NCBI GenBank assembly: GCA_016197285.1
Contig: JACPWD010000022.1
Location: forward strand, 182,502 to 246,501
Origin: Deltaproteobacteria bacterium
GTDB lineage: Bacteria; Desulfobacterota; Binatia; Bin18
DNA: 64,000 nucleotides
Reading direction: 5' to 3'
Below, in pieces: positions 17,174 through 52,902 of the stretch. The notes below the pieces were generated by a model. It was not told the DNA's origin and searched no databases. It saw only the letters and a list, made by a program, of their open reading frames with translations. A program made the position numbers and the translations under genes. The stretch's first letter is position 1, and every line of letters begins with the position of its first letter.

Positions 17174-17197
17174 GCGTCCTGTCCGCCGTCTTCCGGC

Positions 17198-17947: not shown

Positions 17948-18013
17948 CAGTTCCACTCCTTCGGTAAGTACCCCACATTATCGATGCTCTAGTACTTCGT
18001 CCATGAACAGATG

Positions 18014-18118
18014 AGGGATTGTCATTCCGAGCCGGAACGCAGTGCAGGCGAGGAATCTCGTGTCGATACTGCCAGCGTGAGATTTCTCGTCGCTCCGCTC
18101 CTCGAAATGACATCCCTC
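18014..18118. repeat. MITE/REP-like repeat family 1 copy B
   Basis: GTCATTCCGAGCCGGAACGCAGTGCAGGCGAGGAATCTCG ... GAGATTTCTCGTCGC...CGAAATGACA; sits in the alpha-E/Anbu intergenic gap; generates spurious ORF 17745..18113. Confidence 0.7.
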
Positions 18119-18142
18119 GAAATTCCCCGGACAGACTACTAG

Positions 18143-19144: not shown

Positions 19145-19156
19145 CGATTCCGCCCC

Positions 19157-20593
19157 CTACTCGAACAGCACCCACGTATCTTTACTGCCACCACCCTGGG
19201 ACGAGTTCACCACCAGGGACCCTTTCTTCAAGGCCACCCGCGTGAGCCCGCCCGGCAAGACAAAAATATCTTCTCCATAGAGCACGTACGGGCGGAGATC
19301 GACATGCCGCCCCTCGAAATGATCGCCAATAATCACCGGTACGCGCGAAAGCGAGAGGGTCGGTTGAGCGATGTAATTGCGAGGATTGGCCTTAATCAAC
19401 CGCGCGAATTGCTCGCGCTGCATCGACGAAGAATGTGGACCGACGAGCATCCCATACCCACCGGACTCATTGGCGGCTTTGACGACCAGCTTGTCCAGAT
19501 TGTCGAGCACGTAGACTTGCTCTTTCTCGTCCGCGCACACATAGGTAGGCACGTTGGGAATCGCACACTCTTCCCCCAGATAATACTTCACGATCTTGGG
19601 CACATAGGCATACACCACCTTATCGTCGGCGATGCCGGTGCCGGGGGCATTAGCGAGCGCGACGCGACCGGCTTTGTACACCTCCAACAAGCCGGGAACA
19701 CCCAGCGTGGAATCCGGGCGAAAGACGAGGGGATCGAGAAAATCGTCATCAATGCGACGATAGAGCACATCGACCCGCTGCAATCCCTTGGTCGTGTGCA
19801 TTTGGAGCAGCCCATCGGCAACAAGCAGGTCGCGCCCCTCCACCAACTCCACTCCCATTTGTTGCGCCAGAAACGAGTGCTCGAAGTAGGCAGAGTTGTA
19901 AATCCCCGGCGTCAGCACGGCCACGGTCGGGGTCTGAGTGTAATCCGGCGCGAGATACTGCAACATCCCCAGCAAATGGCTGGGGTAATCGTCCACCGGT
20001 CGTACGCGCAATTCGCCGAACACCTGGGGAAAGGTCCGCTTCATAATCTGGCGGTTTTCCAGCACATAGGACACGCCGGAGGGACAGCGCAGGTTATCCT
20101 CCAGGACGTACACCTGCCCGTCACCGTCGCGCACCAGATCGGTGCCGGTAATGTGGCACCAGATGCCGCGTGGGGGCGTGAGCCCGATGCATGCGGCACG
20201 GAACGAACGCGCGGAGGCGATAATCTCTTCGGGAACGACCTTATCTTTGAGGATTTTCTGCTGGTGGTAAATGTCGTCGATGAACAGGTTGAGCGCGACC
20301 ACGCGCTGTTTCAAGCCGCGTTCGAGCCGCTCCCATTCCGCCGACTCGACGATGCGCGGAATGATATCGAACGGAAAGATCCGTTCCGTGCCCGCGCTGT
20401 CGCCGTAGACGTTGAAGGTGATCCCCATGTGCAGGAGCGCCCGCTCCGCTGCCTGTTGGCGCTGATGCAGTTCGCCGTCGGAGAGCGAATCGATGCGCTC
20501 TTGCAGCAGGACCGCTCCAGGGCGAGGACGGCCATCGGGTTGGAACATTTCGTCGGAAAACCCCTCGGTATTGTAGCCGTGAAAGGTGATCAT
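19157..20593 (-). CDS. Circularly permuted ATP-grasp protein (type 2; DUF404/DUF407)
   Basis: Sequence typical of cpATP-grasp amidoligases paired with alpha-E. Track ORF starts at 20674. ATG at 20593 (MITFHGYN...) has GGAG upstream. Confidence 0.8.
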
Positions 20594-20869
20594 GGTCCGG
20601 GTGCTCCGCGTCTCTAAACATCGAACGTGGGCTAAAGCAGCATGTAGCGTGCCAGAGAGATGCCGATTCGGCAACCGAAGCGAAACGGCGGGAACGGTTC
20701 AAGTTCGCTAGATTCTGTAGGAGAGAAGTCAGTCCTGCCTGGACTTCTGGTCGCAGTGGTGCTCAGGTTTTAGGCAGCCGTGCCGCATTCATATGCGACG
20801 GCGCCACCTCCGCCAACGCCGCCGTCGGCAGCAAAAGAGGTAGGCTAGGTCATGACCCAGACTCTGAGA

Positions 20870-24166: not shown

Positions 24167-25960
24167 ATGTACGGATTTCACGGTCGCCTGCTCCAGGTCG
24201 ATCTCACCACCGGCTCTTACGCTTGGCGAGATGTGGCTGACGCTCGGCTACGCCAGGTGCTCGGCGGGATCGGTCTCGGGACGCAGTTGCTCTACGAGTA
24301 CGCGCCCACTCGGGTCGAGCCATTTGCCCCGGAGAATCCGCTGATTTTCACCAGCGCTCCGCTGGTCGGTTCGGGTCTGACCACGACCGCGAAATTCGCC
24401 GTCGTCACCGCCTCGCCGCTCACCGGGTTTATCGCCGATTCGCTCTCGTCAAGTTTCTTCGCTTTGGAACTCAAACGCATCGGTATCGATGCCCTCGTCA
24501 TCACCGGCACGGCGTCCACACCGGTCTTTTTGCGGGTGACGGACGACTCGGTTGAGATACGCGACGCTTCTCACCTCTGGGGCAAAAGCCCGCACGAGAC
24601 TGAAGCCGCTATTCGCCAGGAACTGCAAGAAAGAGAGGCGCGCGTCGCGGCAATTGGCGTCGCTGGGGAACGGCTGGTGCGTTACGCCACCATCAGCAAC
24701 GAAGGTCGCCACGCCGGACGTGGCGGCGTCGGTGCGGTGATGGGGGCCAAACGGCTGAAAGCCATCGCCTTGCGTGGACGCGCACGAGTGCGCGTCGCCA
24801 ATCCAGCCCGCGTCGAAACTATCGCCGATGCCCTCCGCCACAAAAGCCTCGGCTCGCTAACCGCCAAATACCGTGAAATCGGCACGGTCGCGAATCTGGC
24901 GGTGTTCAACCGCTTGGGAGTCCTCCCTACCCACAATTTTCAACAAGCGACGTTCGCACACGCCGACGCGCTGAGTGGCGAGAGTCTGCTGACGAATTCG
25001 TTCAGTCGCGTGCAAGGTTGCGCGTCGTGTACGATCCGCTGCGAACGCCTCTTCAAAGCACTCAACGGCGAAGAACAGCGCCTCGAATACGAGACCTTGT
25101 TCGCGTTAGGGCCGCTGTGTGGCATCGACAACCCCGATGCGGTCCTCCAAGCGGCACAGCGTTGTGACCACTATGGGCTCGATACTATCAGCACCGGCGG
25201 CACCATCGCCTGGGCAATGGACTGCGCAGAAAAGGGCTTGCTGCCGGCGGCGCAACGTCTGGGGCTGCGGTTTGGCAATGCCGAAGCGCTGTTAGCAACA
25301 ATCGATGCTATCGCTACCAGGAGCGGCATGGGCGCGCTTTTCGCCGAAGGATCAAGGCGCGCGGCGGCAATGGTTGGCAAAGAGGCCGAGTATCTGGCCG
25401 TGCATGTCAAAGGGATGGAATTACCCGGCTACGAACCGCGCGGACTCCAAACCATGGCCCTCGGTCTCGCCGTCAGCCCACGCGGTGCCTGCCACAACCG
25501 CTCGGGTGCGTATGAAGCCGACTTCTCTGGGCAGGTAGATCGACTGCAATCCGATCCGCAGCGTGGTGCGCTCGTGGCTGCGTCGGAAGATTTTTCCGCA
25601 GTGCTGGATTCGCTGATCGTCTGTAAGTTCCTCCGCAAATGTTTTACCGACTTCTATCCGGAAGCAGCGGACCTCCTCGCAGGCGTGACCGGCTGGGACT
25701 TCTCGCCTACCGAGCTGCAGCGAGTTGGAGAGCGCATTAACACGCTGAAAAAGCTGTTTAACGTACGCCAGGGATGGCAACCTGAAGATGACAATCTCCC
25801 GCTCCGGCTCTTGCAAGAACCGCTGGCTACCGGCGTGGGCCAAGGAACCCTTTTGACTTCTGTGGAATTGCACGAAATGATTCGGGGGTATTATCGAGTT
25901 CGCGGCTGGGATGAACAAGGGTTCGTTCCGGAAGAGAAATTGCAAGAATTAGGTTTGTAG
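24167..25960 (+). CDS. Aldehyde:ferredoxin oxidoreductase (tungsten-containing AOR family)
   Basis: 597 aa; AOR N-terminal domain and Fe-S/pterin-binding motifs (CxxC...C...TGG-rich segment); ATG at 24167. Confidence 0.85.
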   Translation: MYGFHGRLLQVDLTTGSYAWRDVADARLRQVLGGIGLGTQLLYEYAPTRVEPFAPENPLIFTSAPLVGSGLTTTAKFAVVTASPLTGFIADSLSSSFFALELKRIGIDALVITGTASTPVFLRVTDDSVEIRDASHLWGKSPHETEAAIRQELQEREARVAAIGVAGERLVRYATISNEGRHAGRGGVGAVMGAKRLKAIALRGRARVRVANPARVETIADALRHKSLGSLTAKYREIGTVANLAVFNRLGVLPTHNFQQATFAHADALSGESLLTNSFSRVQGCASCTIRCERLFKALNGEEQRLEYETLFALGPLCGIDNPDAVLQAAQRCDHYGLDTISTGGTIAWAMDCAEKGLLPAAQRLGLRFGNAEALLATIDAIATRSGMGALFAEGSRRAAAMVGKEAEYLAVHVKGMELPGYEPRGLQTMALGLAVSPRGACHNRSGAYEADFSGQVDRLQSDPQRGALVAASEDFSAVLDSLIVCKFLRKCFTDFYPEAADLLAGVTGWDFSPTELQRVGERINTLKKLFNVRQGWQPEDDNLPLRLLQEPLATGVGQGTLLTSVELHEMIRGYYRVRGWDEQGFVPEEKLQELGL

Positions 25961-25974: not shown

Positions 25975-28842
<2,868 letters not shown>

Positions 28843-30721: not shown

Positions 30722-32557
30722 TTATTGTGTATTATCCTTCTTCTTCGGCCGCAGATGCTGTTGCAAGACTCTCTTGCGCATGCGGATCGACTGCGGCGTC
30801 ACCTCGACCAGCTCGTCGTCGGAGATCCACTCCAAGGCGTCCTCAAGACCCATCTCGCGGTGCGGCGTCAAGCGCACGGCTTCATCGTGCCCGGAGGCGC
30901 GCATGTTCGTGAGCTTCTTTTCGCGGCAGGCGTTTACATCGAGATCTCGGTCGCGCGAATACTCGCCGACCACCATGCCTTCGTAGACCGGAGTTCCAGA
31001 GGGCGTGAATAAAACCCCGCGCTCTTGCAGGTGAAACAGGGCATAGGGCACGGTAGGACCTTCGCGGTCCGAGACCAGCGCGCCGTTCGTGCGGCTTTGA
31101 ATCGGCCCCTGCCACGGCGCATAGCCATTGAACAACGAGTTCATAATCCCCGTCCCGCGCGTATCGGTAAGGAAATGCGAGCGAAAACCGATCAACCCGC
31201 GCGAGGGAATCGAGAATTCTAAGCGGACACGGCCAGACCCCAGGTGATCCATCTTCGTCATGATGCCTTTACGAACCGCCAGCAGTTGCGACACCACGCC
31301 GATGTACTCCTCGGGCACGTCGATCAGCAGCAGCTCCATGGGTTCGTGCGGTTTGCCCTCGACATCTTTGGTGATAACGACCGGCTTCGAGACTTGCATT
31401 TCATAGCCCTCACGTCGCATGGTCTCGATGAGGATCGCGAGCTGCAACTCGCCGCGGCCCATGACACGAAACGAGTCGGGCGACTCGGTTTCCTCGACGC
31501 GGAGGCTGACATTCTTCCGCAATTCCGCCCAGAGCCGCTCGCGTATCCTGCGGGACGTGACGAATTGCCCTTCTCGCCCGGACCAGGGACTGGTGTTGAC
31601 GCCGAAAATCATGGCGATGGTCGGCTCGTCCACACGAAGGGCGGGCAGCGGCATGGGGGTTTCCTTGTCGGAAATCGTCTCGCCGATTTGGATCTCTTCG
31701 ATCCCAGCGACGGCCACCACATCGCCGGCCTGCGCGGACTCGATCTCCATACGTTTGAGTCCTTGCCAACTGTAAAGCTGGGTAATTTTACACGGGGTTT
31801 GTGATCCATCGAGGCGACAGACGGTGTAAAAGCTCGTGGCCCGTAGCTCGCCGCTGACAATCCGCCCGATCGCCAGACGCCCCACATAATCGTTGTAATC
31901 GAGGTTATTCACCTGAAACTGAACAACGGCAGTCGGGTCGCTCAGCGGCCCCGGCAACGCCGAGATAATCAGATCGAAGAGCGGACGCAGATCTTCGGAT
32001 TCATCATCGAGTGTCCGTTTGGCAATCCCGGCGCGGGCGTTGGTATACACGACCGGAAACTCGATTTGCTCATCGCTGGCACCCAGGTCGATAAAGAGAG
32101 CGTACACTTCGTCCAGCACTTCGCCGATACGCGCATCTGGACGGTCGATCTTGTTGATGCACACAATCGGCGACAAACCGGCTTCGAGCGCTTTCTTGAG
32201 CACGAAGCGCGTCTGCGGCAGCGGCCCTTCGGACGCATCCACCAGCAGCATGACGCCATCCACCATGGCCAAGGAGCGTTCCACCTCGCCGCCGAAGTCC
32301 GCATGACCAGGGGTATCCACGAAATTGATCTTGACCCCATGGTACGAAATCGCCGCATTCTTCGCCAAGATGGTGATGCCACGCTCGCGCTCCAGCTCGA
32401 ACGAGTCCATGATGCGGTCAACGACCTGCTCTTTTACGCGGAACGTACCGCTTTGGCGCAGCAGCGCATCAATCAGTGTAGTTTTGCCGTGATCGACATG
32501 GGCGATGATAGCGACATTACGGATGTCGCTTCGCCGGGACGTATTCGCCTGTGACAT
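30722..32557 (-). CDS. typA: Translational GTPase TypA/BipA
   Basis: G domain [22 protein letters not shown]. Track ORF begins at a TTG at 32632. ATG 32557 ([20 protein letters not shown]) is preceded by GGAGG with a 4-nt spacer. Confidence 0.9.
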
Positions 32558-32760
32558 GATCCTCCCGAGAAAATAAAAGAGGGCCGGAAAAGGTTCGGCC
32601 CTCTGGATAGACAATGGGAGCATTGTGCCCAATCCCTAGCGCGAAGTCGAGCGAGAATGCCGCATTTTTTACGAAAAGGCAGAGCGAGCTGGAAATTTGT
32701 CGGTGCGTTCACGAGCCGGGGAGCGTGGCCAGCTTCGCTTGAACATGGTACAGAAGCGGC

Positions 32761-34166: not shown

Positions 34167-34191
34167 CACAACACCAAGGAGGCTTACCATG

Positions 34192-35013
34192 GCGGATCAA
34201 GGCTACGCACGCCCGGAAATGCTCGTCACCACCGACTGGCTGGCAGCGCATCTTCAGGACGGAAACATTCGTATCGTCGATTGCGACAACCGCGACGCCT
34301 ATCGTCGCGCCCACATTCCGGGCGCGGTAACGTTTCGCGGTCATCAGTATCTCAAAGAAAAAGAAGGTGCCGTCCACATCATGGGTCCCGAGCAATTCGC
34401 CGAGGCCATGGGGGCGATGGGCATCGGCGACGACACGCTAGTGATTGCGTACGACAGTTTCAGCGGTCTCTATGCGACGCGCTTCTGGTGGGCGCTCAAT
34501 TACTACGGCCATACCCAGGTCAAAGTCGTGAATGGCGGGTGGGACAAATGGCTGGCGGAAGGACGCCAGGTCGTTATGGCGGAGCCGCGCCCACCGAAAG
34601 CGACCTTCACCGCACGGGTGCACGAGGAACTCATCGCCCGCTGGGATTATGTGAAAGATTCCATCACCACGCCTGGCCGAGTCCTACTCGATGTCCGTTC
34701 CGACGGCGAATGGACCGGCGAGAACGCGCGCGGCACCAAACGTGGCGGACGCATTCCCAGCGCCGTCCATCTGGAGTGGCTCAACTACGTCGATAGCAAA
34801 ACCAAAGAGTTCAAACCCGCCGCCGAGCTGCGGGCGATGTTCGAGGCGATAGGGGTCAAGCCAGAGAGCGAAGTCGTCACTTATTGACAAGGCGGCATCC
34901 GTGCGGCGCACGGATTATTCACGCTCCGCCTGCTCGGCTTCGACCGCGTCCGCAACTACGACGCCTCCTGGGGAGAATGGGGCAACCGCGAAGACTTACC
35001 GTTGGAGAAGTAA
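34192..35013 (+). CDS. Rhodanese-domain sulfurtransferase with in-frame UGA at the catalytic position (putative selenocysteine-containing rhodanese)
   Basis: Two rhodanese domains. GGAGG RBS before ATG 34192. The ORF stops at TGA 34885-34887 exactly where the active-site Cys belongs ([12 protein letters not shown]). The same frame continues 42 codons with the rhodanese C-terminal signature [17 protein letters not shown] to TAA 35011-35013. Confidence 0.7.
34888..34930 (+). promoter_or_regulatory. Candidate bacterial SECIS stem-loop downstream of the rhodanese UGA
   Basis: Perfect 7-bp stem ATCCGTG/CACGGAT with 5-nt loop CGGCG begins 10 nt after the UGA; flanking GGCGGC/CCGCC could extend the helix. 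Confidence 0.5.
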
Positions 35014-35075
35014 CCACTCCGTCGAGGCGAACAGCACTTCGTCTCGACGGCTCAGGACCAAAAGGAATGAGGGTT

Positions 35076-35267
35076 ATGGCACGAAGAACCGTCACCGCCC
35101 GGGTTGAAGAAAAACAATTGCAACAAGCGCGTCGATATCTGAAAACTCGAACTCCGTCCGAGACGATGAAAGCAGCGCTGGACTTTGTGACGGAAAAGGC
35201 CGCGCATGAACGGGTGGTGCGGAGATATAGCGGAGTAGGCCAACCCGATGCCTTCCAAGACAGTTGA
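35076..35267 (+). CDS. vapB: VapB-like antitoxin (type II TA)
   Basis: 63 aa, MARRTVTARVEEKQLQQARRYLKTRTPSETMKAALDFV...; overlaps the PIN toxin start by 20 nt; AAAGGA upstream. Confidence 0.65.
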   Translation: MARRTVTARVEEKQLQQARRYLKTRTPSETMKAALDFVTEKAAHERVVRRYSGVGQPDAFQDS

Positions 35268-35670
35268 GTTCGCTGTCCTCGACACTTCGGTGTACATTGA
35301 GAACTTCCGCACCGGGCGTTTCACCCAGCGCATTATGGAAAGTTCGTTCCTCTTTCGCGGAGTCTCCGTTGTGGTTCATGAACTGCTCAGAGGGGCGAGG
35401 AGACCAGAAGAACGGGACTTCGCCCTTGAACTGGCAACAAATCTGCGGATGTACACACCAACAGAACGCATCTGGTTGGATAGCGGAACCATCGTTGCCC
35501 ATCTAGCAGCAGCAAAGGGGTATGAACGACGGAAGATTCAAGAAATTTCTTTTGATGTGTTAATCGCTTTAACAGCTCGCTCTATTGGAGCAACAGTGAT
35601 TACCACCAACCGGCAAGATTTCGAGGATATTCAGCGCTATCGTCAGTTTCATTTCCTTTGCTGGGAGTAA
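35248..35670 (+). CDS. vapC: PIN-domain toxin VapC
   Basis: 140 aa; N-terminal AVLDTSVYIE with conserved Asp, PIN fold acidic residues downstream. Confidence 0.75.
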   Translation: MPSKTVEFAVLDTSVYIENFRTGRFTQRIMESSFLFRGVSVVVHELLRGARRPEERDFALELATNLRMYTPTERIWLDSGTIVAHLAAAKGYERRKIQEISFDVLIALTARSIGATVITTNRQDFEDIQRYRQFHFLCWE

Positions 35671-38362: not shown

Positions 38363-39232
38363 TCAAGACGCAATGCGATCGCTGTGACCGACTAACTCGG
38401 AGGCTGGATCGCCCGACACGCGGGTGTGCTTCATGACCCGTGCTTCGCGATAGTCGAACGGGCGGGCACGGTGCAACACACAGCGGTTGTCCCACACCAC
38501 GACATCACCAGGCTGCCAGGCATGGCTGTACGTTCGCGGTGCCTGACACGCGAACGTGACGAGACTGTCAAGGAGCCTTTCTGACTCCTCAGGCGCAAGA
38601 CCGGGAATGCCATAGGCATGACGACCGATGAAGAGCGACTTGCGTCCCGTCACTGGATGCACCTTCACCAAGGGGCGCAGCGGCGGCTCGCCGGTGTGAA
38701 AGCCGTAACTCGATCCGCGCTCGGCCTTGTGGCCGATGCGGCCCTGCGAATAGTACAGTGAGTGATAGGCTGAGAGCGTAGCGATATGGGCTTTGGTCAC
38801 CTCGTCGAGCGCATCGTAGGCGGCGCGCATGTCTGCCCACTCGGTCTGTCCGCCAGCCGAGGGAACAACGCGCGCCGATAAGACAGAGGCCTTCGCCGCC
38901 AAGGGCATGTAGGAGCTGTCGGTATGCCAGCCCTCGTTGCCACGCATGAGCTGCATGCCGACCTCGTCGTCGTTCATCACTGTGCCGTCTGGGCGCTGAT
39001 TACTGATCGGCACGATCTCACGGTCAGCCACCAGATGTTCGATAGCGCCGAAGCGGCGACCGAAGCCGATCTGCGCGGCCTCGTTGAGATGCTGGCCGGG
39101 AAAGATCAGCACAGCATGGGTATGGAAGGCACGTTCGATATCGGTCCAGACCGCGTCATTGAGTTTGGCGAGGTCGACACCAGTGACGATGGCGCCGAGA
39201 GTGGCTCCAGTCGGAGTAATCGTAAGTGTCAT
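38363..39232 (-). CDS. TauD/TfdA-family Fe(II)/2-oxoglutarate-dependent dioxygenase
   Basis: HTD...H facial-triad pattern (WHTDSSY..., ...HRA). ATG 39232 (MTLTITPTG) is preceded by GGAGGG. Track ORF starts at 39280. Confidence 0.8.
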   Translation of the reverse strand: MTLTITPTGATLGAIVTGVDLAKLNDAVWTDIERAFHTHAVLIFPGQHLNEAAQIGFGRRFGAIEHLVADREIVPISNQRPDGTVMNDDEVGMQLMRGNEGWHTDSSYMPLAAKASVLSARVVPSAGGQTEWADMRAAYDALDEVTKAHIATLSAYHSLYYSQGRIGHKAERGSSYGFHTGEPPLRPLVKVHPVTGRKSLFIGRHAYGIPGLAPEESERLLDSLVTFACQAPRTYSHAWQPGDVVVWDNRCVLHRARPFDYREARVMKHTRVSGDPASELVGHSDRIAS

Positions 39233-39266
39233 GAGTCTCCCTCCTGCGTATATCGCGCAACGCCGA

Positions 39267-40286
39267 TCAGTATCCTTCACCTGTTAAATGGTAGATAACG
39301 ACGCACCGAACCTCAATGCTCCAGCGGGCTGGCGCAGTGGGCGGGGTAGACGCATCGTCGAAGGAACTATGAAAACTAAAAGTGCACGGCGCGTGTGGGT
39401 CGTCACTATCAGGCCGCTGCCCCTTGGACTGCGCAAGGGGGCCAGCCGAATCCCATTGCTTAATGAGGACGGCCTCGTCGCGCGTCATCGCCGGGTAGTA
39501 GTACCACGCGTGTCGCGGGTCCGGTTTGGAAAAATAGTTCTCGCCCACACGGTCGGCATAGTGTAACTCAAACACGCTGAGGTCTGGCGGAGTTACCGTT
39601 TGTGCATCACACAGGGCCAGGGCATGGGTCGCGACCGGCTCCTCCGCAATATTGCGCCACACGTTAATGATGGCGAAGCGACCGTGCGCACTGATCGCCT
39701 GCTCGACCTCCGCCGGGTCGAGCAAAGACGCTCCCGGGGCGATGGCCGAACGCAGCGTATCATTCCCACGCGGCTCTTGTGCCAGGAGTTGCAAACGCTC
39801 AGGGGCGCTGGTGAGAGTGTAATCTCCATGCGCTATACGCGCCGGGCCTTGCACTTCCTGTCCGCCGCGAATGCGTTGCTTGCTGCGTTTCCCGTCCGTA
39901 GACCGGACGTTGTGGTCAAACGCAACCACTGTTGCGGCCCCAGTAACCTCGTGAACCAACTGCTCACATTCGCGGTAGTACTGTTGAATAACGTCTTGGT
40001 GGTCGAGAAAGTCGAGGTCCGGATGCGCCACAGGACGAAAACACAGCTCAAACCCGTTTTTCTCGACCGTGCGACGTTGGTCCCCTTCGAGCAGTCGGGC
40101 GTTACGGACTGTGAGCTGACGCTCGTCGTAGACGACCCCTTCCAGTTCGGAGTCGCTCCCGTCAGCGTTCCGCCGCAGGAGCATCTTGCCGTTTCGATAT
40201 AAGGAACTGGCCACCGAGGAAGCGAGATAATTCAGCCGGCCCACACTAGCTTCACGGTCGGTCGCCTGTGCTGTGGATTGCGTCAT
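39267..40286 (-). CDS. Hypothetical protein, possibly CmcJ/NvfI-like non-heme iron hydroxylase family
   Basis: 339 aa; contains HGD...(H) pattern and general resemblance to CmcJ-like proteins. Assignment is tentative. Confidence 0.4.
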   Translation of the reverse strand: MTQSTAQATDREASVGRLNYLASSVASSLYRNGKMLLRRNADGSDSELEGVVYDERQLTVRNARLLEGDQRRTVEKNGFELCFRPVAHPDLDFLDHQDVIQQYYRECEQLVHEVTGAATVVAFDHNVRSTDGKRSKQRIRGGQEVQGPARIAHGDYTLTSAPERLQLLAQEPRGNDTLRSAIAPGASLLDPAEVEQAISAHGRFAIINVWRNIAEEPVATHALALCDAQTVTPPDLSVFELHYADRVGENYFSKPDPRHAWYYYPAMTRDEAVLIKQWDSAGPLAQSKGQRPDSDDPHAPCTFSFHSSFDDASTPPTAPARWSIEVRCVVIYHLTGEGY

Positions 40287-41312: not shown

Positions 41313-42641
41313 TCATTTGAAACCCAGCGAGGCCAGCGGGCTACGATCCACGACGGGCGCACGCTTGGTCCCGGCATGCAATGCGACCGAGCCGGGCGTG
41401 CGCTCAAACGGGTCCGGCAGATCGAGCGCGCGCGCGTGCTCCTTAAGTGCCGGCATCACCTCTTCCGCGAATAAGCGCATGCTGGTGCGTCGCTCGTCAT
41501 CACTATGCGGCCCCTGGAGGCTCAGGATGATGAAGATGCCGACGCGCAGCGTGCTCATGATTCCCTTGATTTTGGGGATGACGGTCTGAGGGGTGCCGAC
41601 GATCACCTGCATGTTTTGCTGACCGCGCATCAACGCCGCCTGCAGCTTGCGCCGGACTTCGGTGTAATCGATCTCAGCAGCAGCGCCCTGCATCTGCTCC
41701 CTTATCTTCTCGCCGCTGATCCCGAGCCACGCACTGGTCTGGGTCTTCGCCAAGGTGCGAATGGCGGTTTTCGAGTTGTAGCCCGGCGGCATCATGAATT
41801 CCGCCGCCGAGAACGCGTTCTGCCCACCGCCATAGACGAACCCCGCAGCGGCTTGCTGGGCTTTTTCCTCGGTCTCTCCCAAGGCCGTTGCAACCATATA
41901 GCCGAAATTCTCCGGCCCGGCTTGATAGCCATGCTTGGCTGCTTCGTCCGCGTAGAAGTCCCACAGATCGCATGTGGGCACCAGCGGTGTGCCGAGCCCG
42001 ATATAGGGATAGCGATGCGCGGCGCACCACTCGACAGTCTCGGGGCTAAGCGTCCCAGGAATCCACATAGGCGGATGGGGTTTTTGGTAGGGCAGCGCCC
42101 ACGGATTGACGTGGCGATAATGAAAATGCTTTCCCTCGTAGCGCCACGGTCCGGGGCGCGTCCAGGCCTGGATGATAAAGTCGTGCGCTTCGTTGAACAG
42201 CTCGCGATTGTACGCGGGATTGGCATTATTGAAGAACTGCTCGCTGCCCGCGCCGCGCACCCAGCCGGTGACCAGTCGGCCACGCGAGATCAAATCGATC
42301 TCGGCCAGCTCTTCGGCTAGCCGCAGCGGATGCTTGTTGACCGGCAGCGGATTGCCAATGAGTACCAGACGGGCACGCTTAGTGCGATAAGCCAGAATGG
42401 CCGCCTCGACGTTCATCACCGACCCCATGCAGATCGGGTTGCCGTGATGCTCATTCAGGGCAAGGACATCGAAGCCGAGGTCCTCAGCGTAGCAATATTC
42501 ATCGAGGTAGTAGTGGTAGTCAGCGGCCGCCTTGTCGCGATCGAAATGCTCGTTCGAGACGGCGAAGAACGCGCGGTTTTTCAAAATAAGCTCTTCCGGT
42601 AGCCCGCGATACGGCCGTTCGGTAAAATATCCTACTTGCAT
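41313..42641 (-). CDS. LLM-class flavin-dependent oxidoreductase (luciferase-like monooxygenase)
   Basis: 442 aa; TIM-barrel luciferase-like sequence features. Confidence 0.75.
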   Translation of the reverse strand: MQVGYFTERPYRGLPEELILKNRAFFAVSNEHFDRDKAAADYHYYLDEYCYAEDLGFDVLALNEHHGNPICMGSVMNVEAAILAYRTKRARLVLIGNPLPVNKHPLRLAEELAEIDLISRGRLVTGWVRGAGSEQFFNNANPAYNRELFNEAHDFIIQAWTRPGPWRYEGKHFHYRHVNPWALPYQKPHPPMWIPGTLSPETVEWCAAHRYPYIGLGTPLVPTCDLWDFYADEAAKHGYQAGPENFGYMVATALGETEEKAQQAAAGFVYGGGQNAFSAAEFMMPPGYNSKTAIRTLAKTQTSAWLGISGEKIREQMQGAAAEIDYTEVRRKLQAALMRGQQNMQVIVGTPQTVIPKIKGIMSTLRVGIFIILSLQGPHSDDERRTSMRLFAEEVMPALKEHARALDLPDPFERTPGSVALHAGTKRAPVVDRSPLASLGFK

Positions 42642-42682
42642 CTGGTGGTCCCTCGATTGATGGTGTTCAGCTCGGAGACAAG

Positions 42683-42922
42683 CTAGGGGGAATTCTGACC
42701 GAACTCTGCGGTCAAGCTATTGAGTTCCGCCTGCAGCTTATCAAGCTCCTCTTCCAACTGCCCTTGCAGCGCCCCGTAGGCACTTGGGTGCAGTGTTTCA
42801 CTGCGAGTCAGCAGGTCGTCCAGTTCCTTTTGTTTTCGTTCGAGCTCAACGCGGAGCAGCTCAACCTGGCGGTGAGCTACTGCGTTGTCTCCGCCCACTT
42901 CACGTTCTAGCCTCGCTCCCAT
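42683..42922 (-). CDS. Hypothetical small coiled-coil protein
   Basis: 79 aa from ATG 42922; heptad-rich (LLRVELERKQKELDDLL...LEEELDKLQAELNSL); no homology recognised. Confidence 0.35.
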   Translation of the reverse strand: MGARLEREVGGDNAVAHRQVELLRVELERKQKELDDLLTRSETLHPSAYGALQGQLEEELDKLQAELNSLTAEFGQNSP

Positions 42923-43020
42923 GTTGCTTGTCCTTTCCTGGCGAGCAATCCAGCTGCCAGTACGGTGCATGTTCCCGAGGAAAGGTCCTGCCGGTCTCTT
43001 TCGTCACGCCACCCTCAAGC

Positions 43021-44880
43021 TTACTTTGCCGGGCCAAAACAGTACGGCTGGAGGGTGTCCTGTGCGGCGAGACGGAACTTGTGCCAGCGGCCACCGCCGT
43101 AATAGGCAAGGCTTCCGGGCTCGGCGTCTCCATGCCCGTTGTAATACGACAGACAGTCGCGCAGTGAGGCACTCATGATGTCTACCTGGCGGCAGTGCTG
43201 GGCGTACTCCTCTTGCGGCTGGCGATGCAGGTCGACGATGGTCTCGCCTCGGTCACGCAGGGTTGACAACATCCACACAAGGTAGTCGCCATGCGCGTCG
43301 ATGGCGTCAGTGAAGTTGAAACTACCACCGCCGCCCTGAGGGCCAGTGACGACGAAGAGGTTCGGGAAGTCTTTCACGTGGAGACCGAGAAAGGTCTTGG
43401 TGCCCTCGGCAGCCCACGTCTCTGCGATGGTGCGGCCGTCGCGGCCTCTCGTCTTCTCGAATAAGCCGCTTGCCATCCATTGGAACCCCGTCGCATAGAT
43501 CAACACATCGAGGGGATACTCAACCCCATCGTGCACGACCCCCTTTGCGTTGATCTGGCTCACGCCCATCGGTGCCGTGTCCACCAAATGGACATGCGGC
43601 TTGTTGAACGCCGGCAGAAATTCGTCGTGGAACGTGGGCCGCTTGCACCCGTATGGGTAATACGGCTTCAGGGCCGCAGCGATCTTGGGATCTTTAACGA
43701 TAGTGTCAACCCGCGCCCGGATCTGCTCCATGATCCGGAAACTCGTGTTCAGTTGCTTCTGTATCAGCTCCTCAGGCGCTAGTCGGGTTTCGTGCTGCTT
43801 GCGCTCTCGGAAATCAGCGACCTTGCCAGCGAGGTAGTCGTCGTTGGCCTGGATCGCGGTGCGGCCCTCGGAGATCCGGGCGAATCGCACCCGGCGGGCT
43901 CGCGCCCAGCCTGGCTCATGGGACCACTGGTCGATCTCCTCCGGCGTCGTTTCGCGCTGGTCACGGATATCAATCGTCGACGGTGTGCGCTGGAACACAT
44001 GCAGTTGGCCGGCGATCTTCGCCAGCTCCGGAATGACTTGCACCGCCGTCGCCCCGGTGCCAATGATGCCGACTCGCTTCCCTTCCAAGGCGATATTGTA
44101 CTTCCAGCGCGAGGTGTGAAACGACTCGCCCTGAAACGTCTCCATGCCCTCAATACGGGCCAGCTTCGGTGTGGTGAGAATCCCATTCGCGTAGACCAGG
44201 TACCGCGCCCGCATGGCGTCGCCACGGTTCGTGTACACGGTCCAACGGCCAGCCGCTTCATCCCACATGGTCTTCTCGACCGTGGTGTGAAACAGACAGT
44301 GGTCGTAGAAGCTAAATTTTTGGGCCATCTTCTGGCAATACTCGAAGATCTCAAACCCCGACGCAAATTTCATCGTCGGGAAATAGCCCATCTCCTCCAG
44401 TAAAGGGAAATAACTGTACGACTCCACGTCACAGGCAATCCCTGGATATCGGTTCCAGTACCAGGTCCCGCCGACATCGCCGCCCTTCTCACAGAACCGT
44501 ACGTCGGTGAATCCCGCTTGGCTCAGCTTGTGCCACAACAACAGACCTCCGAAACCGCCGCCCACCACAAGGATTTCGCATTCGTCGGTCAGGGCGTCGC
44601 GAGGGACTGGGGCCGCAGAGTACACGTCCTCAAGGTATTTGCTAAACTCGCCCTCCATCGCCATGTAGTCCGCAGCCCCCCGACGAGCCTCCTTGTTAGC
44701 GAGATACTTCGCCTGCTCCTCGGCGTTAAACACCGCGCCCGGCGGCGGCGGCGGCAGCGTCTTGAGCGACTCCTCCTGGGTGACTGAGTAGCCTCTCCCT
44801 ACCACATCATCCATCGTACTGGCGGCACGGGTGTTGAAGATCTTTCGTCCGGTATCGGGGTCAATTCTAATCGACATCAT
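43021..44880 (-). CDS. Baeyer-Villiger monooxygenase (FAD/NADPH-dependent flavin monooxygenase)
   Basis: 619 aa; FAD motif VVGGGFGGL, BVMO fingerprint GGTWYWNRYPG, second dinucleotide motif GIIGTGATAVQ. Confidence 0.85.
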   Translation of the reverse strand: MMSIRIDPDTGRKIFNTRAASTMDDVVGRGYSVTQEESLKTLPPPPPGAVFNAEEQAKYLANKEARRGAADYMAMEGEFSKYLEDVYSAAPVPRDALTDECEILVVGGGFGGLLLWHKLSQAGFTDVRFCEKGGDVGGTWYWNRYPGIACDVESYSYFPLLEEMGYFPTMKFASGFEIFEYCQKMAQKFSFYDHCLFHTTVEKTMWDEAAGRWTVYTNRGDAMRARYLVYANGILTTPKLARIEGMETFQGESFHTSRWKYNIALEGKRVGIIGTGATAVQVIPELAKIAGQLHVFQRTPSTIDIRDQRETTPEEIDQWSHEPGWARARRVRFARISEGRTAIQANDDYLAGKVADFRERKQHETRLAPEELIQKQLNTSFRIMEQIRARVDTIVKDPKIAAALKPYYPYGCKRPTFHDEFLPAFNKPHVHLVDTAPMGVSQINAKGVVHDGVEYPLDVLIYATGFQWMASGLFEKTRGRDGRTIAETWAAEGTKTFLGLHVKDFPNLFVVTGPQGGGGSFNFTDAIDAHGDYLVWMLSTLRDRGETIVDLHRQPQEEYAQHCRQVDIMSASLRDCLSYYNGHGDAEPGSLAYYGGGRWHKFRLAAQDTLQPYCFGPAK

Positions 44881-45054
44881 CTGCTCTCCTTTATTCGCAT
44901 ACCTCTCTAGTGCAAGTTCCCTGAGTCATTCGTCCCGGGAAACCTCCGAGACTCTACCCTACCGTGTGCCAAATATCTAGGTCGTAATGAACCGTACCAA
45001 GTATTGAGATTGGCAAATGATTGAAGGGGCGCTGGTGCCGCTCATCACATCCCT

Positions 45055-45200
45055 CTCCTCCTGTCCTTCTCCCCAATGGGGAGAAGGGAACGAAAAATGG
45101 GAGGGTTCGCTGCGCCGCCCCTACCTGGCCTTTTCGCTCCTTCGCCATTTCCCCTTTTCGCCCTTCTTTCATCCTTCATCCTTCATCCTTCCGCATTCAC
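45055..45200. repeat. CT-rich low-complexity repeat with TTCATCC(T) triplet
   Basis: ...CCCCTTTTCGCCCTTCTTTCATCCTTCATCCTTCATCCTTCCGC...; related to 35690..35770. Confidence 0.5.
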
Positions 45201-46381
45201 GCCTCTTTCGTCACCACCAACCCGCTGCCGCGTAGCATGGGCGAACCGTCAATGGCGCAAACGGCGGCGGCACCGGAGATCTGCCGCTGCTCGGCGCGTC
45301 CGGTGACTTGAAAGACGGCTTCGGCGATGTGGCCCATGCCGTGCAACCGGCCTTCGCTGAGACTGCCGCCGAAGGTATTGACTGGCAACTCGCCTTCCAA
45401 GGCGATGCGCCCATCTTGAATGAAACTCCACGCTTCGCCTGCTCCGCAAAATCCGGCGGCTTCCAGCCAGTATAAGGTGGATGGGCTGAATCCGTCGTAG
45501 AGCTGCGCCGCGTCCATATCGCGCGGCCCGAGCCCAGACGACGCCCACAATTTTGTCGCCAACGATTGTCCACAGGCAATGTAATCGTCGAGCGCATAGT
45601 GAAACAGCGTGCGACGGCGGCTGGTGTTTTGCCCATAGCCGGCGATGTACGCCGGCGGGTTGCGTAAGTCGCGCGCGCGCGCCGCAGTAGTCAGCACCAA
45701 CGCGACGCAGCCCTCCACCGGAATGTCACAGTCGAAGAGACACAAGGGCTCAGCAATCCAGCGCGAGGCCAGATAATCGTCGTGGGTCATCGGCGTGGTG
45801 TAAAAGAACGCGCGAGGATTCAGGTTGGCATTGCGCCGACTATTGGTAACAAAGGTCGCGAGATGTTCACGTGTCGCGCCGTATTTATGCATGTAGCGCT
45901 GCCACTGCATGGCGTGCCACTGAAAAATGCTGGTAGCACCGTAAGGCGCGACAAATTGCGCCTCGCCCGACGCCCGAGTGCTAGACCACGCGCCGTAGCG
46001 CCCACGCGGTTGGTGCAACGCTCGCCACACCAAGACGTAGTCGCAGGCACCAGCGAGCAGTGCATGCACGGCTTCGATCACCGGGCTGGCAATCATGCCG
46101 GCCTCGATTTGCGCGTACCAGCGGATGTCGGACGCTAGCGGCAACTGGTTCAGGATGTACATGACACTGACGATGTCCTCGCCATCGCGATTCCCCGCCC
46201 CCAAAGCTGGCAGCTCTGGGTAGGTTGTCAGTCCGTCGATTTGTTCCGGTGCCACACCGGCATCGGCCATGGCCGCCTGACAGGCATCAATAGCCAATAA
46301 CCCCAGCGGCTTTTGCGAATGGCGCGTCAACTGCGAGTAGCCTACGCCGACGATTGCGGTTTTACCTTTACCTGACCACAT
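45197..46381 (-). CDS. Thiolase-like protein (SCP-x/Ltp-type, partner of DUF35)
   Basis: Thiolase fold. ATG 46381 (MWSGKGKTAIVGVGYSQ) is 29 nt after the DUF35 gene. Track ORF starts at 46738 and runs through the DUF35 gene region in another frame. Confidence 0.75.
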   Translation of the reverse strand: MWSGKGKTAIVGVGYSQLTRHSQKPLGLLAIDACQAAMADAGVAPEQIDGLTTYPELPALGAGNRDGEDIVSVMYILNQLPLASDIRWYAQIEAGMIASPVIEAVHALLAGACDYVLVWRALHQPRGRYGAWSSTRASGEAQFVAPYGATSIFQWHAMQWQRYMHKYGATREHLATFVTNSRRNANLNPRAFFYTTPMTHDDYLASRWIAEPLCLFDCDIPVEGCVALVLTTAARARDLRNPPAYIAGYGQNTSRRRTLFHYALDDYIACGQSLATKLWASSGLGPRDMDAAQLYDGFSPSTLYWLEAAGFCGAGEAWSFIQDGRIALEGELPVNTFGGSLSEGRLHGMGHIAEAVFQVTGRAEQRQISGAAAVCAIDGSPMLRGSGLVVTKEA

Positions 46382-46410
46382 GATGTTCTTGCCCTTTACG
46401 TTCGAGGAAG

Positions 46411-46833
46411 TTATTCGGCAATGACCCGAAACATTGGCAACGAAATCTCCTCGTTTACGTCCTCGAAATACACTTCCACTCGCCCGCCAATCTTGACCTG
46501 CTCGCGCTCCGAGCCTGGGAGATTGGCCACCATGAACAAGCGCGGCTGCTCGTCCAGTTCCACCAGCAGATTCACATACGGCACCTGCTGCTCGAATCCA
46601 GCGATGTTTTGTTGGAACATGACCGAGAAGGTATAGACCGTGCCCTTTCCGCTCACCGGCACGAAAGCGAGGGTCTGGGATTGGCAGGCGTCGCACACCG
46701 TGCGCGGCGGGTGATTGAAGTAGCCGCAGGCGCTGCACTGCTGGACAACAAGCCGGTGTTGTCGTGCGGCATCCCAGAACGGACGGGTGAGTTCGTCGGC
46801 TGCCGGAAGAGGTCGTTGTTGCTGTTCCGCCAT
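46411..46833 (-). CDS. DUF35 OB-fold/zinc-ribbon protein (thiolase-associated)
   Basis: 140 aa; rubredoxin-like zinc ribbon CSACGYFNHPPRTVCDAC followed by OB fold; canonical pairing with the thiolase-like gene. Confidence 0.75.
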   Translation of the reverse strand: MAEQQQRPLPAADELTRPFWDAARQHRLVVQQCSACGYFNHPPRTVCDACQSQTLAFVPVSGKGTVYTFSVMFQQNIAGFEQQVPYVNLLVELDEQPRLFMVANLPGSEREQVKIGGRVEVYFEDVNEEISLPMFRVIAE

Positions 46834-47110
46834 AAGGTCCTCCGCTATTGTCGTAATCCCGCTTGCTTCAGTAACGGCAGTTCATGCCGAAGATCCCGAG
46901 TTTCATCTTCTGCTCGTTAAAGACCGGTACGTGTTTGCGGCGATACTCCATCAACTCGGTTGCATTCATAGGCGTCTTTCCTCTATTGTCATCCCCGGTT
47001 CCGGCACGGACGCGCCGAGGGTCCAGTATGCACAGGCTTGATATCTACATCTGTACGAAAAGCAAGTGTACGGTCAAGCAATCTGACAAGAACTCCGAGG
47101 AGAATGATCC

Positions 47111-47503
47111 ATGAACCAAATCTACGGCCTCGGCATCGCCGGGTTGTCCGTCATCATTGCCGCAGTTACTTCGGGAATACGGCTCAAACCCTACCTGGAT
47201 GCCGGTGTGGAACGCACGCCCATGACCTTCGCGGCATATCCTGCCCTCATTGCGATCGCCATCACCGTGCCGGTCGTGTTTGCTATCCGCTGGCTTACCA
47301 GGAAGAAAAACATCGCCATCGGTCCGGTGACCTTTTCCGGGAATCTTCCCTTCATCACCCTAGGTTGCCTACTCTACGCCGCAATCGCCGTCCTATTTTT
47401 TCCTTACCAAGCAGCGCCTCCCCCGCCGGCGAAAGATGCAATACATACGCGGCTGACCGACACAGACACGAGCGAGAAAGGGCTGACATGGAAGAGCACC
47501 TGA
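47111..47503 (+). CDS. Hypothetical small membrane protein
   Basis: 130 aa with 3-4 predicted TM helices. Confidence 0.45.
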   Translation: MNQIYGLGIAGLSVIIAAVTSGIRLKPYLDAGVERTPMTFAAYPALIAIAITVPVVFAIRWLTRKKNIAIGPVTFSGNLPFITLGCLLYAAIAVLFFPYQAAPPPPAKDAIHTRLTDTDTSEKGLTWKST

Positions 47504-47883
47504 GCGTCGATTCGTTTTCCGCATTGTTGGGATTGCAGGTGGAAGAAGCCCGAGTGGACTTTTGCCGCCTGCGGATGCCGTTCCGACCGGACCTGCGCAC
47601 GACTGCCGAGGTCGTGCATGGGGGCGCTATTGCCTCGCTGATCGATACGGCGGCGGTCGTAGCCGTGTGGTCCAATGTCGATGCCGATACCACCCGGGGA
47701 GCTACCGCGAGTCTGACAGTCAATTACTTAGCGGCGTCAGGGCGGGAGGACTTAATCGCCAACGCGCAGGTCATTCGTCGCGGTAGAAGCGTCGTCTTCG
47801 TGGATGTCGATGTCTTCGCCCTCCGAGGCGAGCGCATCGCCAAGGGTGTGGTCACCTACAAACTCGGACGCGGCGGGAAATAA
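47488..47883 (+). CDS. PaaI-family hotdog-fold thioesterase
   Basis: HGGAIASLIDTA motif. ATG 47488 has AAAGGG 6 nt upstream. The track gives a longer overlapping ORF from 47038. Confidence 0.75.
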   Translation: MEEHLSVDSFSALLGLQVEEARVDFCRLRMPFRPDLRTTAEVVHGGAIASLIDTAAVVAVWSNVDADTTRGATASLTVNYLAASGREDLIANAQVIRRGRSVVFVDVDVFALRGERIAKGVVTYKLGRGGK

Positions 47884-47889
47884 GCCCGA

Positions 47890-49101
47890 CTATGTCGTCT
47901 TTCGCCGCCGCAAATGAAACGCGGCGCGTCCGGCATGGAGCATGAAGGTAAGCGCCGCCCACGCCAGCACGAGTTGGAAAGCCGGAAGCGAGGTACCGGT
48001 CAGAAATCCCACAAGTAGAACGACGAGATACATGCCACGACGCCCGCCAAGAAAACACAGCCGCCGATCGAAAGCCGACATCTCATCCAGAGGTTTGCCT
48101 GTGGTACGGGTGAACCACGCTCCCAGTAACTGATCGACCAGAGTACAAGCGATCACAGCCATGCCGATGCCCCACGCCGTAGGGTGGTGCGTCTGCGCCA
48201 GCCGTTCGGCAAGTGCGAGATACCATAGATTTTCGGAGAACAGTTTCGTCGCGAATTCTTGCCGCGTGAGCGGTGCGGCCATAAGTTTGAGGCGAGCGAG
48301 CTTGCCCTCGACTCCATCCAGAAGAATCGTCATCCACGAGAAGAGCACCGCCAGCACGAACCAGCCTTGGTAAAAGAGCGAGGCTCCGGCCAACGCAAAA
48401 GCCAGAGAAAGGAGCGCTACTTGGCTCGGCGTCACTGCCGTCGTGCATAAGGCAGTGACAATCCGATTCTCTACGGCTGGATGGACATACTTCTCCAACA
48501 CATCTGCCGGACGTTGCGACACTCGATCGAGCAACAGCCGCCAGCCGCGCTGAAGATCTTCGTCCGAGGTCATTTTCTCGCAGTACGGCGGCGCACTCCC
48601 ATGATTCTCGGTGTCGTGCCCGGACACTGCCAAGAGCGAGACGCGCTGCGCTTTATGAAAGACTTCGTTACCCATGGAGAGGTGACGCGGAGCAAGCATG
48701 CCCACGCGCCACGGCGGCGGAAAGACCCCATTGCCCAAGATCATGAACGCGGGAGGAGGCTGCCTAGACATCGTGGCCAAGACCCGACGATCGACGAGCA
48801 GGTTGGCATCGAGGAGCAAAAACGGCTTGTCGAGTTCTTGATGGAGCGCAGGGAGGATAGTCAACGGGTCCGCTGTCCCGATTTCCAACGGGCTGTGAAT
48901 TACCTCCATATCCAGCGCTCTCGGCACGGTAAACAACGGCATAGGATCGCCGGGCGGATGCAGCACCCACGCTTTTTCTACGCCAACTTGACTCAAGAGG
49001 CGGAGGTTCCGCTCCAGCAAGGTCATACCACCCAACCAGCGCCACTCTTGCCCGGGAATCTTGAAAAGAACGGCTTGCATGAGGAGCCAGGAAAGCCGCA
49101 A
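47890..49101 (-). CDS. Fusion protein: N-terminal sugar/alcohol-phosphate nucleotidyltransferase-like domain + C-terminal CDP-alcohol phosphatidyltransferase-like membrane domain (IPCT/DIPPS-like architecture)
   Basis: The N-terminal ~220 aa resemble MobA-like NTP transferases. The C-terminal ~180 aa are polytopic membrane with a DG...AR-like motif (LLDGVEGKLARL). Confidence 0.5.
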   Translation of the reverse strand: MRLSWLLMQAVLFKIPGQEWRWLGGMTLLERNLRLLSQVGVEKAWVLHPPGDPMPLFTVPRALDMEVIHSPLEIGTADPLTILPALHQELDKPFLLLDANLLVDRRVLATMSRQPPPAFMILGNGVFPPPWRVGMLAPRHLSMGNEVFHKAQRVSLLAVSGHDTENHGSAPPYCEKMTSDEDLQRGWRLLLDRVSQRPADVLEKYVHPAVENRIVTALCTTAVTPSQVALLSLAFALAGASLFYQGWFVLAVLFSWMTILLDGVEGKLARLKLMAAPLTRQEFATKLFSENLWYLALAERLAQTHHPTAWGIGMAVIACTLVDQLLGAWFTRTTGKPLDEMSAFDRRLCFLGGRRGMYLVVLLVGFLTGTSLPAFQLVLAWAALTFMLHAGRAAFHLRRRKTT

Positions 49102-49104
49102 CGC

Positions 49105-50247: not shown

Positions 50248-50259
50248 GGTGAGTCTCCT

Positions 50260-52869: not shown

Positions 52870-52902
52870 GTAAACTCTGCCTCACGATTCAATTGAATGA
52901 GG

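Follow-up and report, generated by a model that had tools for sequence, protein, structure and literature searches.

The 64,000-nucleotide (nt) stretch analysed here (hereafter the window) spans positions 182,502 to 246,501 of contig JACPWD010000022.1 from a Deltaproteobacteria bacterium of the candidate lineage Candidatus (Ca.) Binatia (assembly GCA_016197285.1), and carries on its forward strand a rhodanese gene with an in-frame TGA codon. The gene begins with an ATG at 34189-34191, located 6 nt downstream of a Shine-Dalgarno-like AAGGAGG (34176-34182) recognized by direct reading of the sequence, and its first 232 codons (34189-34884) encode the N-terminal non-catalytic domain and most of the C-terminal catalytic domain. 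The TGA (34885-34887) is codon 233, beyond which direct reading shows the same frame to stay open for 41 codons (234-274) up to a TAA at 35011-35013; this second part of the coding sequence (34888-35013), which is made only when the UGA is recoded, supplies the C-terminal end of the catalytic domain. A preliminary description of this DNA had given the gene as 34192-35013; the internal TGA, the open frame past it and the terminal TAA were correctly placed, whereas the start was not, as it leaves out the ATG. With Cys put at the TGA, the full product of 274 residues matches the Pfam rhodanese domain PF00581 in two stretches (E=7.7e-36, 123 bits), and together with end-to-end alignments to solved rhodaneses this recovers the tandem-rhodanese architecture, in which the catalytic domain is the C-terminal one.

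In alignments with the rhodaneses 1UAR (Thermus thermophilus) and 3HZU (Mycobacterium tuberculosis SseA) the TGA coincides with the catalytic Cys, and in that with Azotobacter vinelandii RhdA (1E0C) it coincides with Cys230, as the preliminary description had proposed for the active-site codon. These solved tandem rhodaneses align with the product over its full length (E=2.8e-48 to 1UAR and 2.2e-37 to 1E0C; 3HZU also end to end) and have Cys where the present gene would have selenocysteine (Sec, U). The active-site loop, U233-Q-G-G-I-R-A, shows the typical layout of a nucleophile heading a six-residue loop (C-X5 followed by a small residue), with Sec in place of Cys. It has the Gln at +1 and the Arg at +5 in common with the RhdA loop C230-Q-T-H-H-R-S; the extended version Q-G-G-I-R-A-A-H is specific to its clade, and most of the close relatives in the PDB have C-R-I-G-E-R-S-S-H instead. 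The TGA and Cys codons thus form a Sec/Cys pair, with 25 Cys-bearing open reading frames (ORFs) aligning at the TGA site and at least 20 at each of 41 such sites. As the score against the NCBIfam equivalog for 3-mercaptopyruvate sulfurtransferase (3-MST), NF008557, is 147.5 bits against a cut-off of 250, and the loop is not of the CG[ST]GVT type, the product was not filed as a 3-MST. Another rhodanese-domain family with Sec members is rhodanese_LYCAU (NF041203, 'rhodanese-related (seleno)protein', form 3), which, unlike the present tandem-domain protein, has a single domain of about 126 residues and a CxU motif; membership in it was rejected, as the match reaches 25.5 bits against a cut-off of 115 and covers residues 103-124 only.

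On the strength of this position and of the comparative sequence evidence given below, we consider it very likely that the gene encodes a 274-residue tandem rhodanese of the thiosulfate/3-mercaptopyruvate sulfurtransferase type (SseA, COG2897), in which the catalytic Cys is replaced by Sec. The candidate selenocysteine sulfurtransferase of the preliminary description is thereby supported, by the catalytic position, the conservation of the TGA, the constrained tail and the hairpin linked to the UGA, and each of its predictions that could be checked was borne out. Sec-containing SseA/COG2897 rhodaneses were already reported in 2005 and 2008, and the present gene joins this described but little-studied family, which had rightly been called rare: the selenoproteome of the Sargasso Sea included a 'Rhodanese-related sulfurtransferase, COG2897' with three sequences and a predicted Sec insertion sequence (SECIS) (PMC1088965), and the GOS data yielded eight Sec sequences as opposed to 3,367 Cys homologs for cd01449 and one sequence for COG2897 (PMC2398784). 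In reviews the family appears as COG2897 (SseA), 'form 4, UxxG' (PMC9312934, PMC13188914), and the present product combines the PF00581 domain with this motif in the form U-Q-G-G. The published COG2897/cd01449 proteins belong to the same tandem class, with Sec in place of the catalytic Cys in the C-terminal domain, the UxxG motif and a small G-containing apical loop, and like the protein described here they are known from sequence alone. They amount to a handful of marine sequences (3 and 8+1), whereas the present gene comes from Ca. Binatia, a soil and freshwater lineage. Exact-sequence look-ups of ten Sec-form products returned accessions other than MCY3690685.1, MQG53192.1 and AACY01016424, and it is the COG/CDD assignment and the motif, rather than an alignment, that suggest that our sequences and the published form 4 belong to the same subfamily.

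To place the TGA in a comparative framework we collected homologous loci from one genome per species with peptide patterns drawn from the N-terminal 232 residues only, which gave 80 loci (individual loci are cited below by L numbers). In 43 of these, with 45-91% identity, a TGA occurs at the matching codon, and the frame past it is conserved for about 41 codons more; the genomes are Ca. Binatia or metagenome-assembled genomes (MAGs) labelled delta- or Proteobacteria, along with Dehalococcoidia/Chloroflexota/SAR202. All of the more distant homologs have TGC or TGT in its place. The alignment to Sec- and Cys-containing homologs called for in the preliminary description thus gives a consistent picture, and the homologs do not all end at this position without a C-terminal extension. 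Including the metagenomes, orthologs with the UGA are found at 43 genome loci in two phyla and on at least 58 metagenome contigs, with conserved flanks on both sides; in some members from Chloroflexota the loop is U-Q-A-G. Protein searches retrieved about 60 distinct clusters, 66-88% identical, that are annotated as 230-235 residues long and so end at the position of the TGA, as well as relatives of 271-282 residues. The identical protein of 232 residues is also on record on an independent Logan contig (L001), and in the public records that we saw the gene is given as a 'sulfurtransferase', 'rhodanese-like' or 'hypothetical' protein of 232-234 residues ending one residue before the nucleophile. 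The gene is therefore systematically mis-annotated as truncated.

The tail peptide is conserved in all Sec and Cys forms. Pairwise Nei-Gojobori proportions over the 41 full-length Sec forms give a ratio of nonsynonymous to synonymous differences (pN/pS) of 0.38 before the UGA and 0.23-0.24 after it, at a pS of about 0.6-0.7. This low downstream ratio implies that the tail is translated in this frame and is under strong constraint.

Immediately downstream of the UGA, within the coding sequence and on the same strand, lies the hairpin AUCCGUGC-GGC-GCACGGAU (34897-34915), which begins at the 10th nucleotide past the UGA and overlaps codons I237-R-A-A-H-G242 of the catalytic loop. It had been described as a 7-bp stem with a 5-nt loop starting 10 nt past the UGA; it is indeed present, and reads equally well as an 8-bp stem with a 3-nt loop. 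Its invariant core, ATCCGTGCGGCGCACGG (34897-34913), contains the two stem arms (34899-34904 and 34908-34913) and the loop GGC (34905-34907), and in the window two extra A-U pairs (34897/34915 and 34898/34914) lengthen the stem from 6 to 8 bp. The published model of the bacterial SECIS (bSECIS) specifies an apical loop 3-9 nt in length on an upper stem of 4-16 bp, a distance of 16-37 nt between UGA and loop and a minimum free energy of -7.5 kcal/mol or below, with a G in the first two loop positions according to the pattern N1-G-[G|U]-N-N2 (PMC13188914). The hairpin lies within these limits in every respect: the GGC loop is closed by a C-G pair, the stem has 6 bp (8 in the window), the spacing is 17 nt, and the energy is -11.0 kcal/mol in the window and -9.33 for the consensus. 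In the RNAalifold consensus, the only structure retained is the 6-bp stem capped by the 3-nt loop. Folding of the region downstream of the UGA under a SECIS model thus bears out the apical hairpin of a bSECIS. As in the E. coli fdhF-type element, it is situated in the coding sequence directly after the UGA, here with a 3-nt loop starting G-G and a 6-bp stem; unlike in the bSECIS prototype, no supported lower stem or bulge was found.

The element is invariant at the level of nucleotides. The 17-mer ATCCGTGCGGCGCACGG is identical in 44 of 44 Sec forms, synonymous sites included, while the codons just before it (CAR GGN GGN) and those after it are freely variable in these forms. Among 104 degenerate columns with a conserved amino acid in 41 genes, the codon entropy is zero in six, namely the TGA and codons 237-241 (ATC CGT GCG GCG CAC), as against a mean of 1.34 bits elsewhere. 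The pairing scheme accounts for this pattern: the third position of the Ile codon pairs with the second of Gly242, the third of Arg with the second of His, the third of His with the second of Arg, and the third of the second Ala with the second of the first Ala, while the third position of the first Ala codon is the loop G. Since each synonymous site is tied to a site fixed by the protein or is itself the loop G, no compensatory change is possible that would leave the enzyme as it is, and since the codons of the catalytic loop themselves make up the hairpin, these 17 nt are invariant rather than covarying. The bSECIS elements of different genes generally do not resemble each other in sequence (PMC13188914); in contrast, the 17 nt described here are identical across two phyla.

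The Cys forms serve as a natural control for this constraint. With the peptide I-R-A-A-H/Y unchanged, the 17-mer is altered in 8 of 10 Cys forms and in none of the 44 Sec forms, a contrast that involves related lineages and is not a statistic on independent samples. The distant Cys forms (L038, L039 and L043) use other codons and have a broken hairpin. The close Cys forms, seven in number and all with TGC, never TGT, display graded stages of decay, with one change in the 17-mer in L085, L086, L089 and L090, two in L087, and an intact 17-mer in L088 and L091, the youngest, which share clusters of at least 90% identity with Sec forms. A metagenome scan with the bare 17-mer recovered at least 120 stretches; among the matches listed, at least 58 are rhodanese genes with a TGA exactly 12 nt upstream, encoding 55 distinct downstream peptides. 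Thus 58 of the 59 17-mers listed in a rhodanese context are accompanied by TGA, the remaining one being a TGC rhodanese, and the other listed matches are unrelated chance occurrences with no TGA at that offset.

In a rough neighbour-joining tree, Cys forms are basal in the C/U-Q-[GA]-G-I-R-A-A-H clade, within which two Sec clades (Chloroflexota and Binatia) have at least seven Cys forms nested at their tips, and parsimony requires at least nine switches. Because the TGC forms retain relics of the SECIS, the sequences indicate that the usual direction of the switch was from Sec to Cys. We also observed Sec (TGA) and Cys (TGC) versions side by side within protein clusters of at least 90% identity, in the Binatia and the Chloroflexota clades alike (L088-L091 versus L025, L002 and L005), a coexistence that is a polymorphism at nearly the species level.

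A link to the Sec machinery comes from an orthologous locus. ARAGORN, run over all fetched DNA, detected a tRNA-Sec gene with anticodon UCA in L082/L083 (Rfam RF01852, 73.8 bits against a gathering threshold of 47), and in L082 a Sec-form ortholog with the TGA, the 17-mer and the open tail follows this gene on the same strand, at a distance of 1.17 kb. This ortholog is 72% identical to the present gene and 72-77% identical to proteins of the Binatia clade; L082 is a 5.5-Mb contig with Binatia-type synteny, and the downstream neighbour of the ortholog is 55-59% identical to the gene at the same position in named Ca. Binatia loci. On the Chloroflexota side, two Dehalococcoidia MAGs rank in BSepDB among the ten bacteria with the most selenoprotein genes (PMC13326102), BSepDB being the one record returned by a literature search on Sec in SAR202/Chloroflexota. 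A possible cultured host was rejected, as the 5.5-Mb contig carrying P0067 is a metagenome assembly. The L082 tRNA-Sec gene (8740-8835) is flanked by a MaoC-like and a SPOR-domain gene, with the Sec-rhodanese 1.17 kb away, and a BREX-type defence cluster (BrxL, PglZ and BrxC with HEPN/nucleotidyltransferase genes; 12788-20702) comes next, within 3 kb downstream.

Several results weigh against a Sec-encoding function and have to be set against the above. Taken singly, the hairpin is moderately unusual, with a fold z-score of -1.7 for 66 nt, and it shows no covariation, since its sequence never varies among the Sec forms compared. The lower SECIS stem that could form between the Gly-Gly codons and the downstream F-T-L codons was rejected: 78.9% of the cells are paired, and no measure exceeds the shuffle controls. 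In the 64-kb window no selA, selB, selD or tRNA-Sec gene was found (no tRNA and no Rfam match), and the flanks of the Sec-form loci contain no selA, selB or selD, with tRNA-Sec in those of L082/L083 only; the tblastn probes were E. coli SelA, SelB and SelD sequences that serve as leads only and that did recover SelA in L067. In about 1.3 Mb (the window and the 80 loci), a scan covering all TGAs flanked by open frame yielded no second selenoprotein gene, and a literature search returned no paper linking Binatia and Sec. In favour of the hairpin, its fit is uncommon in the window: a perfect-stem hairpin that conforms to the bSECIS model follows only 4.5% of the 1723 TGA trinucleotides there, and one at -11 kcal/mol or below only 1.6%. 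Rfam has no match over the window at gathering thresholds, with chance-level hits at E<=10 and no SECIS family around the site. The decisive evidence is accordingly comparative and does not lie in the single sequence.

Some further candidates were examined and discarded. The only SelB-like match in the window (30722-32632) is TypA/BipA, and those at other loci are EF-Tu (L039) and CysN/CysC (L009); the remaining TGA/Cys alignments in the 1.3 Mb are shadow-frame artefacts, leaving the rhodanese site as the only credible one. As a separate observation, tRNA-SeC genes lie within 10 kb of a distant Cys-form rhodanese in two Desulfobacterota-type MAGs (L054 13921-14018 and L067 15544-15641), in L067 with a selA homolog (1864-3137) also within 10 kb; the rhodanese of these loci belongs to another subfamily, carries a long C-terminal extension and uses Cys.

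The comparative data also allow other explanations of the TGA to be weighed. If the UGA were a true stop, the product would be a 232-residue protein without its catalytic residue, and the downstream conservation would reflect an RNA element or a separate peptide, in agreement with the gene callers and GenBank, which annotate 232-234 residues, and with the use of TGA as a normal stop elsewhere in the window. Yet the 41 downstream codons evolve as coding sequence in the same frame (pN/pS 0.23) with synonymous change free outside the hairpin, and the tail completes the rhodanese fold as in 1UAR and 1E0C while lacking a start codon of its own, the only in-frame candidate being a TTG at 35002, three codons before the stop. 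A rhodanese cut before its nucleophile would moreover be inactive, and still the end point is conserved across two phyla; a true stop is therefore very improbable in our view. The same downstream constraint, with pN/pS at 0.23 and the same TGA in 43 other loci, excludes a pseudogene, as had been argued in advance from the preserved frame. A sequencing or assembly error that turned TGC or TGT into TGA in one genome would take only a single-base change, and there are indeed Cys forms that share more than 90% identity with Sec forms; but the recurrence of the TGA in 43 independent genome assemblies, at least 58 further metagenome contigs and the independent Logan contig, in a gene that is otherwise intact and under purifying selection, leaves error or decay with scarcely any probability.

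A genome-wide reassignment of UGA to an ordinary sense codon (genetic codes 4 or 25) has nothing to recommend it beyond the in-frame TGA itself. TGA is the normal stop of 8 of the 18 Pfam-supported genes in the window, which means that the code is not reassigned, the rhodanese site is the only credible in-frame TGA in the 1.3-Mb scan, and it aligns with Cys rather than Trp or Gly, so that this explanation has a vanishingly small likelihood. More serious is the alternative that the UGA is read through or recoded without Sec, either as Cys or Trp by near-cognate decoding or as Cys through the Sec machinery at low selenium, in which case the mature enzyme would be a common rhodanese with Cys (or another residue), and the recoding step would set how much of it is made. 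Translation of the downstream frame, clear as it is, agrees with more than one inserted residue, selA, selB and selD are missing from the flanks of every Sec-form locus, and switches from Sec to Cys are frequent and evidently tolerated, all of which such recoding would accommodate. Nevertheless, both the loop sequence and the spacing of the element agree with the SelB-type bSECIS model (PMC13188914), the UGA coincides exactly with the Cys position as in a hallmark Sec/Cys pair, a tRNA-Sec gene adjoins an ortholog, and half of the clade belongs to Dehalococcoidia, a selenoprotein-rich class (PMC13326102). On balance we regard recoding without Sec as unlikely, and retain Sec as the residue most consistent with the data.

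With Sec at this position, decoding would follow the known bacterial mechanism, from which we infer the individual steps. As the ribosome reaches the UGA at 34885-34887, the apical hairpin 11 nt further on, with its invariant 6-bp stem and GGC loop, would leave the mRNA channel; SelB carrying Sec-tRNA(Sec) would then bind the hairpin and, competing with RF2, bring Sec into the A site, after which translation would continue for 41 codons to the TAA. Dependence on SelB and actual incorporation of selenium are thus presumed, as is the substrate. Judging only from rhodanese chemistry, the selenolate may take up sulfane sulfur, or possibly selenium, to give an Se-S (or Se-Se) intermediate and then hand it on to an acceptor, and the substrate could accordingly be a sulfur or a selenium compound.

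New in the present case are the lineage of the host, a SECIS that is dual-coding and invariant, and the graded decay that this SECIS undergoes after switches from Sec to Cys. The corrected annotation adds a selenoprotein to Ca. Binatia, an uncultured group with no reported selenium biology, and the gene is common in soil, freshwater and marine metagenomes, with at least 58 Sec-form copies in the 17-mer scan. The locus represents a clean natural experiment, in that the same peptide is encoded by nucleotides that are frozen in the presence of the UGA and drift in graded steps once TGA has become TGC. A SECIS this short (6-bp stem, 3-nt loop) that tolerates very different hosts could serve the design of recombinant selenoproteins, and the natural Sec/Cys pairs of more than 90% identity are matched enzymes with which to ask what Sec gives a sulfurtransferase; the basic picture of Sec decoding in bacteria is unchanged. 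Going further, we tentatively put forward a combined proposal that we ourselves hold to be doubtful as a whole: that Ca. Binatia is a Sec-decoding lineage in which this rhodanese is widespread and possibly the principal selenoprotein; that the 17-nt SECIS is a dual-coding lock of catalytic-loop codons, unchanged in two phyla and in over 100 variants of the gene, and would be a ready-made minimal SECIS for distantly related SelB proteins; and that the enzyme functions in selenium rather than sulfur trafficking, for instance as a perselenide or selenosulfide carrier feeding selenophosphate synthesis. The last part is hinted at by selC adjoining the gene in one genome and cysDN/cysC in others.

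Gene context yields no firm functional clue. In the window the rhodanese is preceded by a ferritin-like gene and an enoyl-CoA hydratase and followed by a small ORF, a PIN-domain gene and a TPR protein, and no neighbour is conserved in common between the Binatia and the Chloroflexota clades. Recurrent neighbours in Binatia, which are not diagnostic and are absent from the window, encode an ICMT-like methyltransferase, an inositol-monophosphatase family protein, a deoxyhypusine-synthase-like protein and a cytidylyltransferase; the inositol-monophosphatase-family gene (CysQ-like?) recurs downstream in 12 loci. In some loci of the Binatia clade, cysD and a fused cysN/cysC (sulfate adenylyltransferase/APS (adenosine 5'-phosphosulfate) kinase) are found 2-4 kb upstream of the Sec-rhodanese (L009, 5470-8201, and L011), a context that makes a link to sulfate or selenate activation possible; this arrangement is not seen in the present window. 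Near-identical Binatia-type loci also turn up in MAGs labelled 'Candidatus Methylomirabilota', 'uncultured Enterobacteriaceae' or 'Klebsiella pneumoniae' (L003, L004, L007 and L024), and these labels are probably taxonomic errors or the result of mis-binned contigs.

Past the rhodanese stop, direct reading of the sequence reveals an inverted repeat, CCGTCGAG...CTCGACGG (35019-35050, forward strand), whose 8-bp stem encloses a loop of 16 nt and which starts 6 nt after the stop and has no T-run after its second arm. It is not part of the recoding signal and is possibly a hairpin that forms or stabilizes the 3' end of the transcript. The next gene is an ORF of 66 residues (35067-35267) with no Pfam match, which is overlapped by the PIN-domain ORF (35248-35670), and the pair looks like a VapBC-type toxin-antitoxin system. 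As related Binatia loci carry different genes at this position, namely an ORF of 265-291 residues and then an ICMT/PEMT-like methyltransferase, the pair (35067-35670) looks like a local insertion.

The preliminary description had also noted an adjacent formate dehydrogenase (FDH) alpha subunit of the Cys form. The Cys form stands, as the gene (25975-28842; 955 residues, NuoG-fused; TIGR01591, 823 bits) is uninterrupted, has no in-frame UGA and encodes ...HCTRLCHASSVAAL..., which has the same ligand Cys-His as the Cys-type tungsten FDH 7VW6; the adjacency holds only loosely, as the gene is close by, 5.3 kb upstream with five genes in between. Directly upstream of it on the same strand is an aldehyde:ferredoxin oxidoreductase gene (AFOR_N/AFOR_C; 24167-25960), likewise of the Cys type and free of in-frame TGA. 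The FDH alpha subunit is closest to the tungsten FDH 7VW6/7E5Z, and two typically tungsten-dependent families are thus encoded side by side. Further downstream, the regions 38363-39280 and 41313-54024 encode a TauD/TfdA-family dioxygenase and four luciferase-like (flavin-dependent) monooxygenases; in among these genes are acyl-CoA dehydrogenases, a thiolase-like gene and a thioesterase. No link between these genes and the rhodanese was established, and their composition is consistent with the oxidation of organosulfonates or of alkanes and fatty acids.

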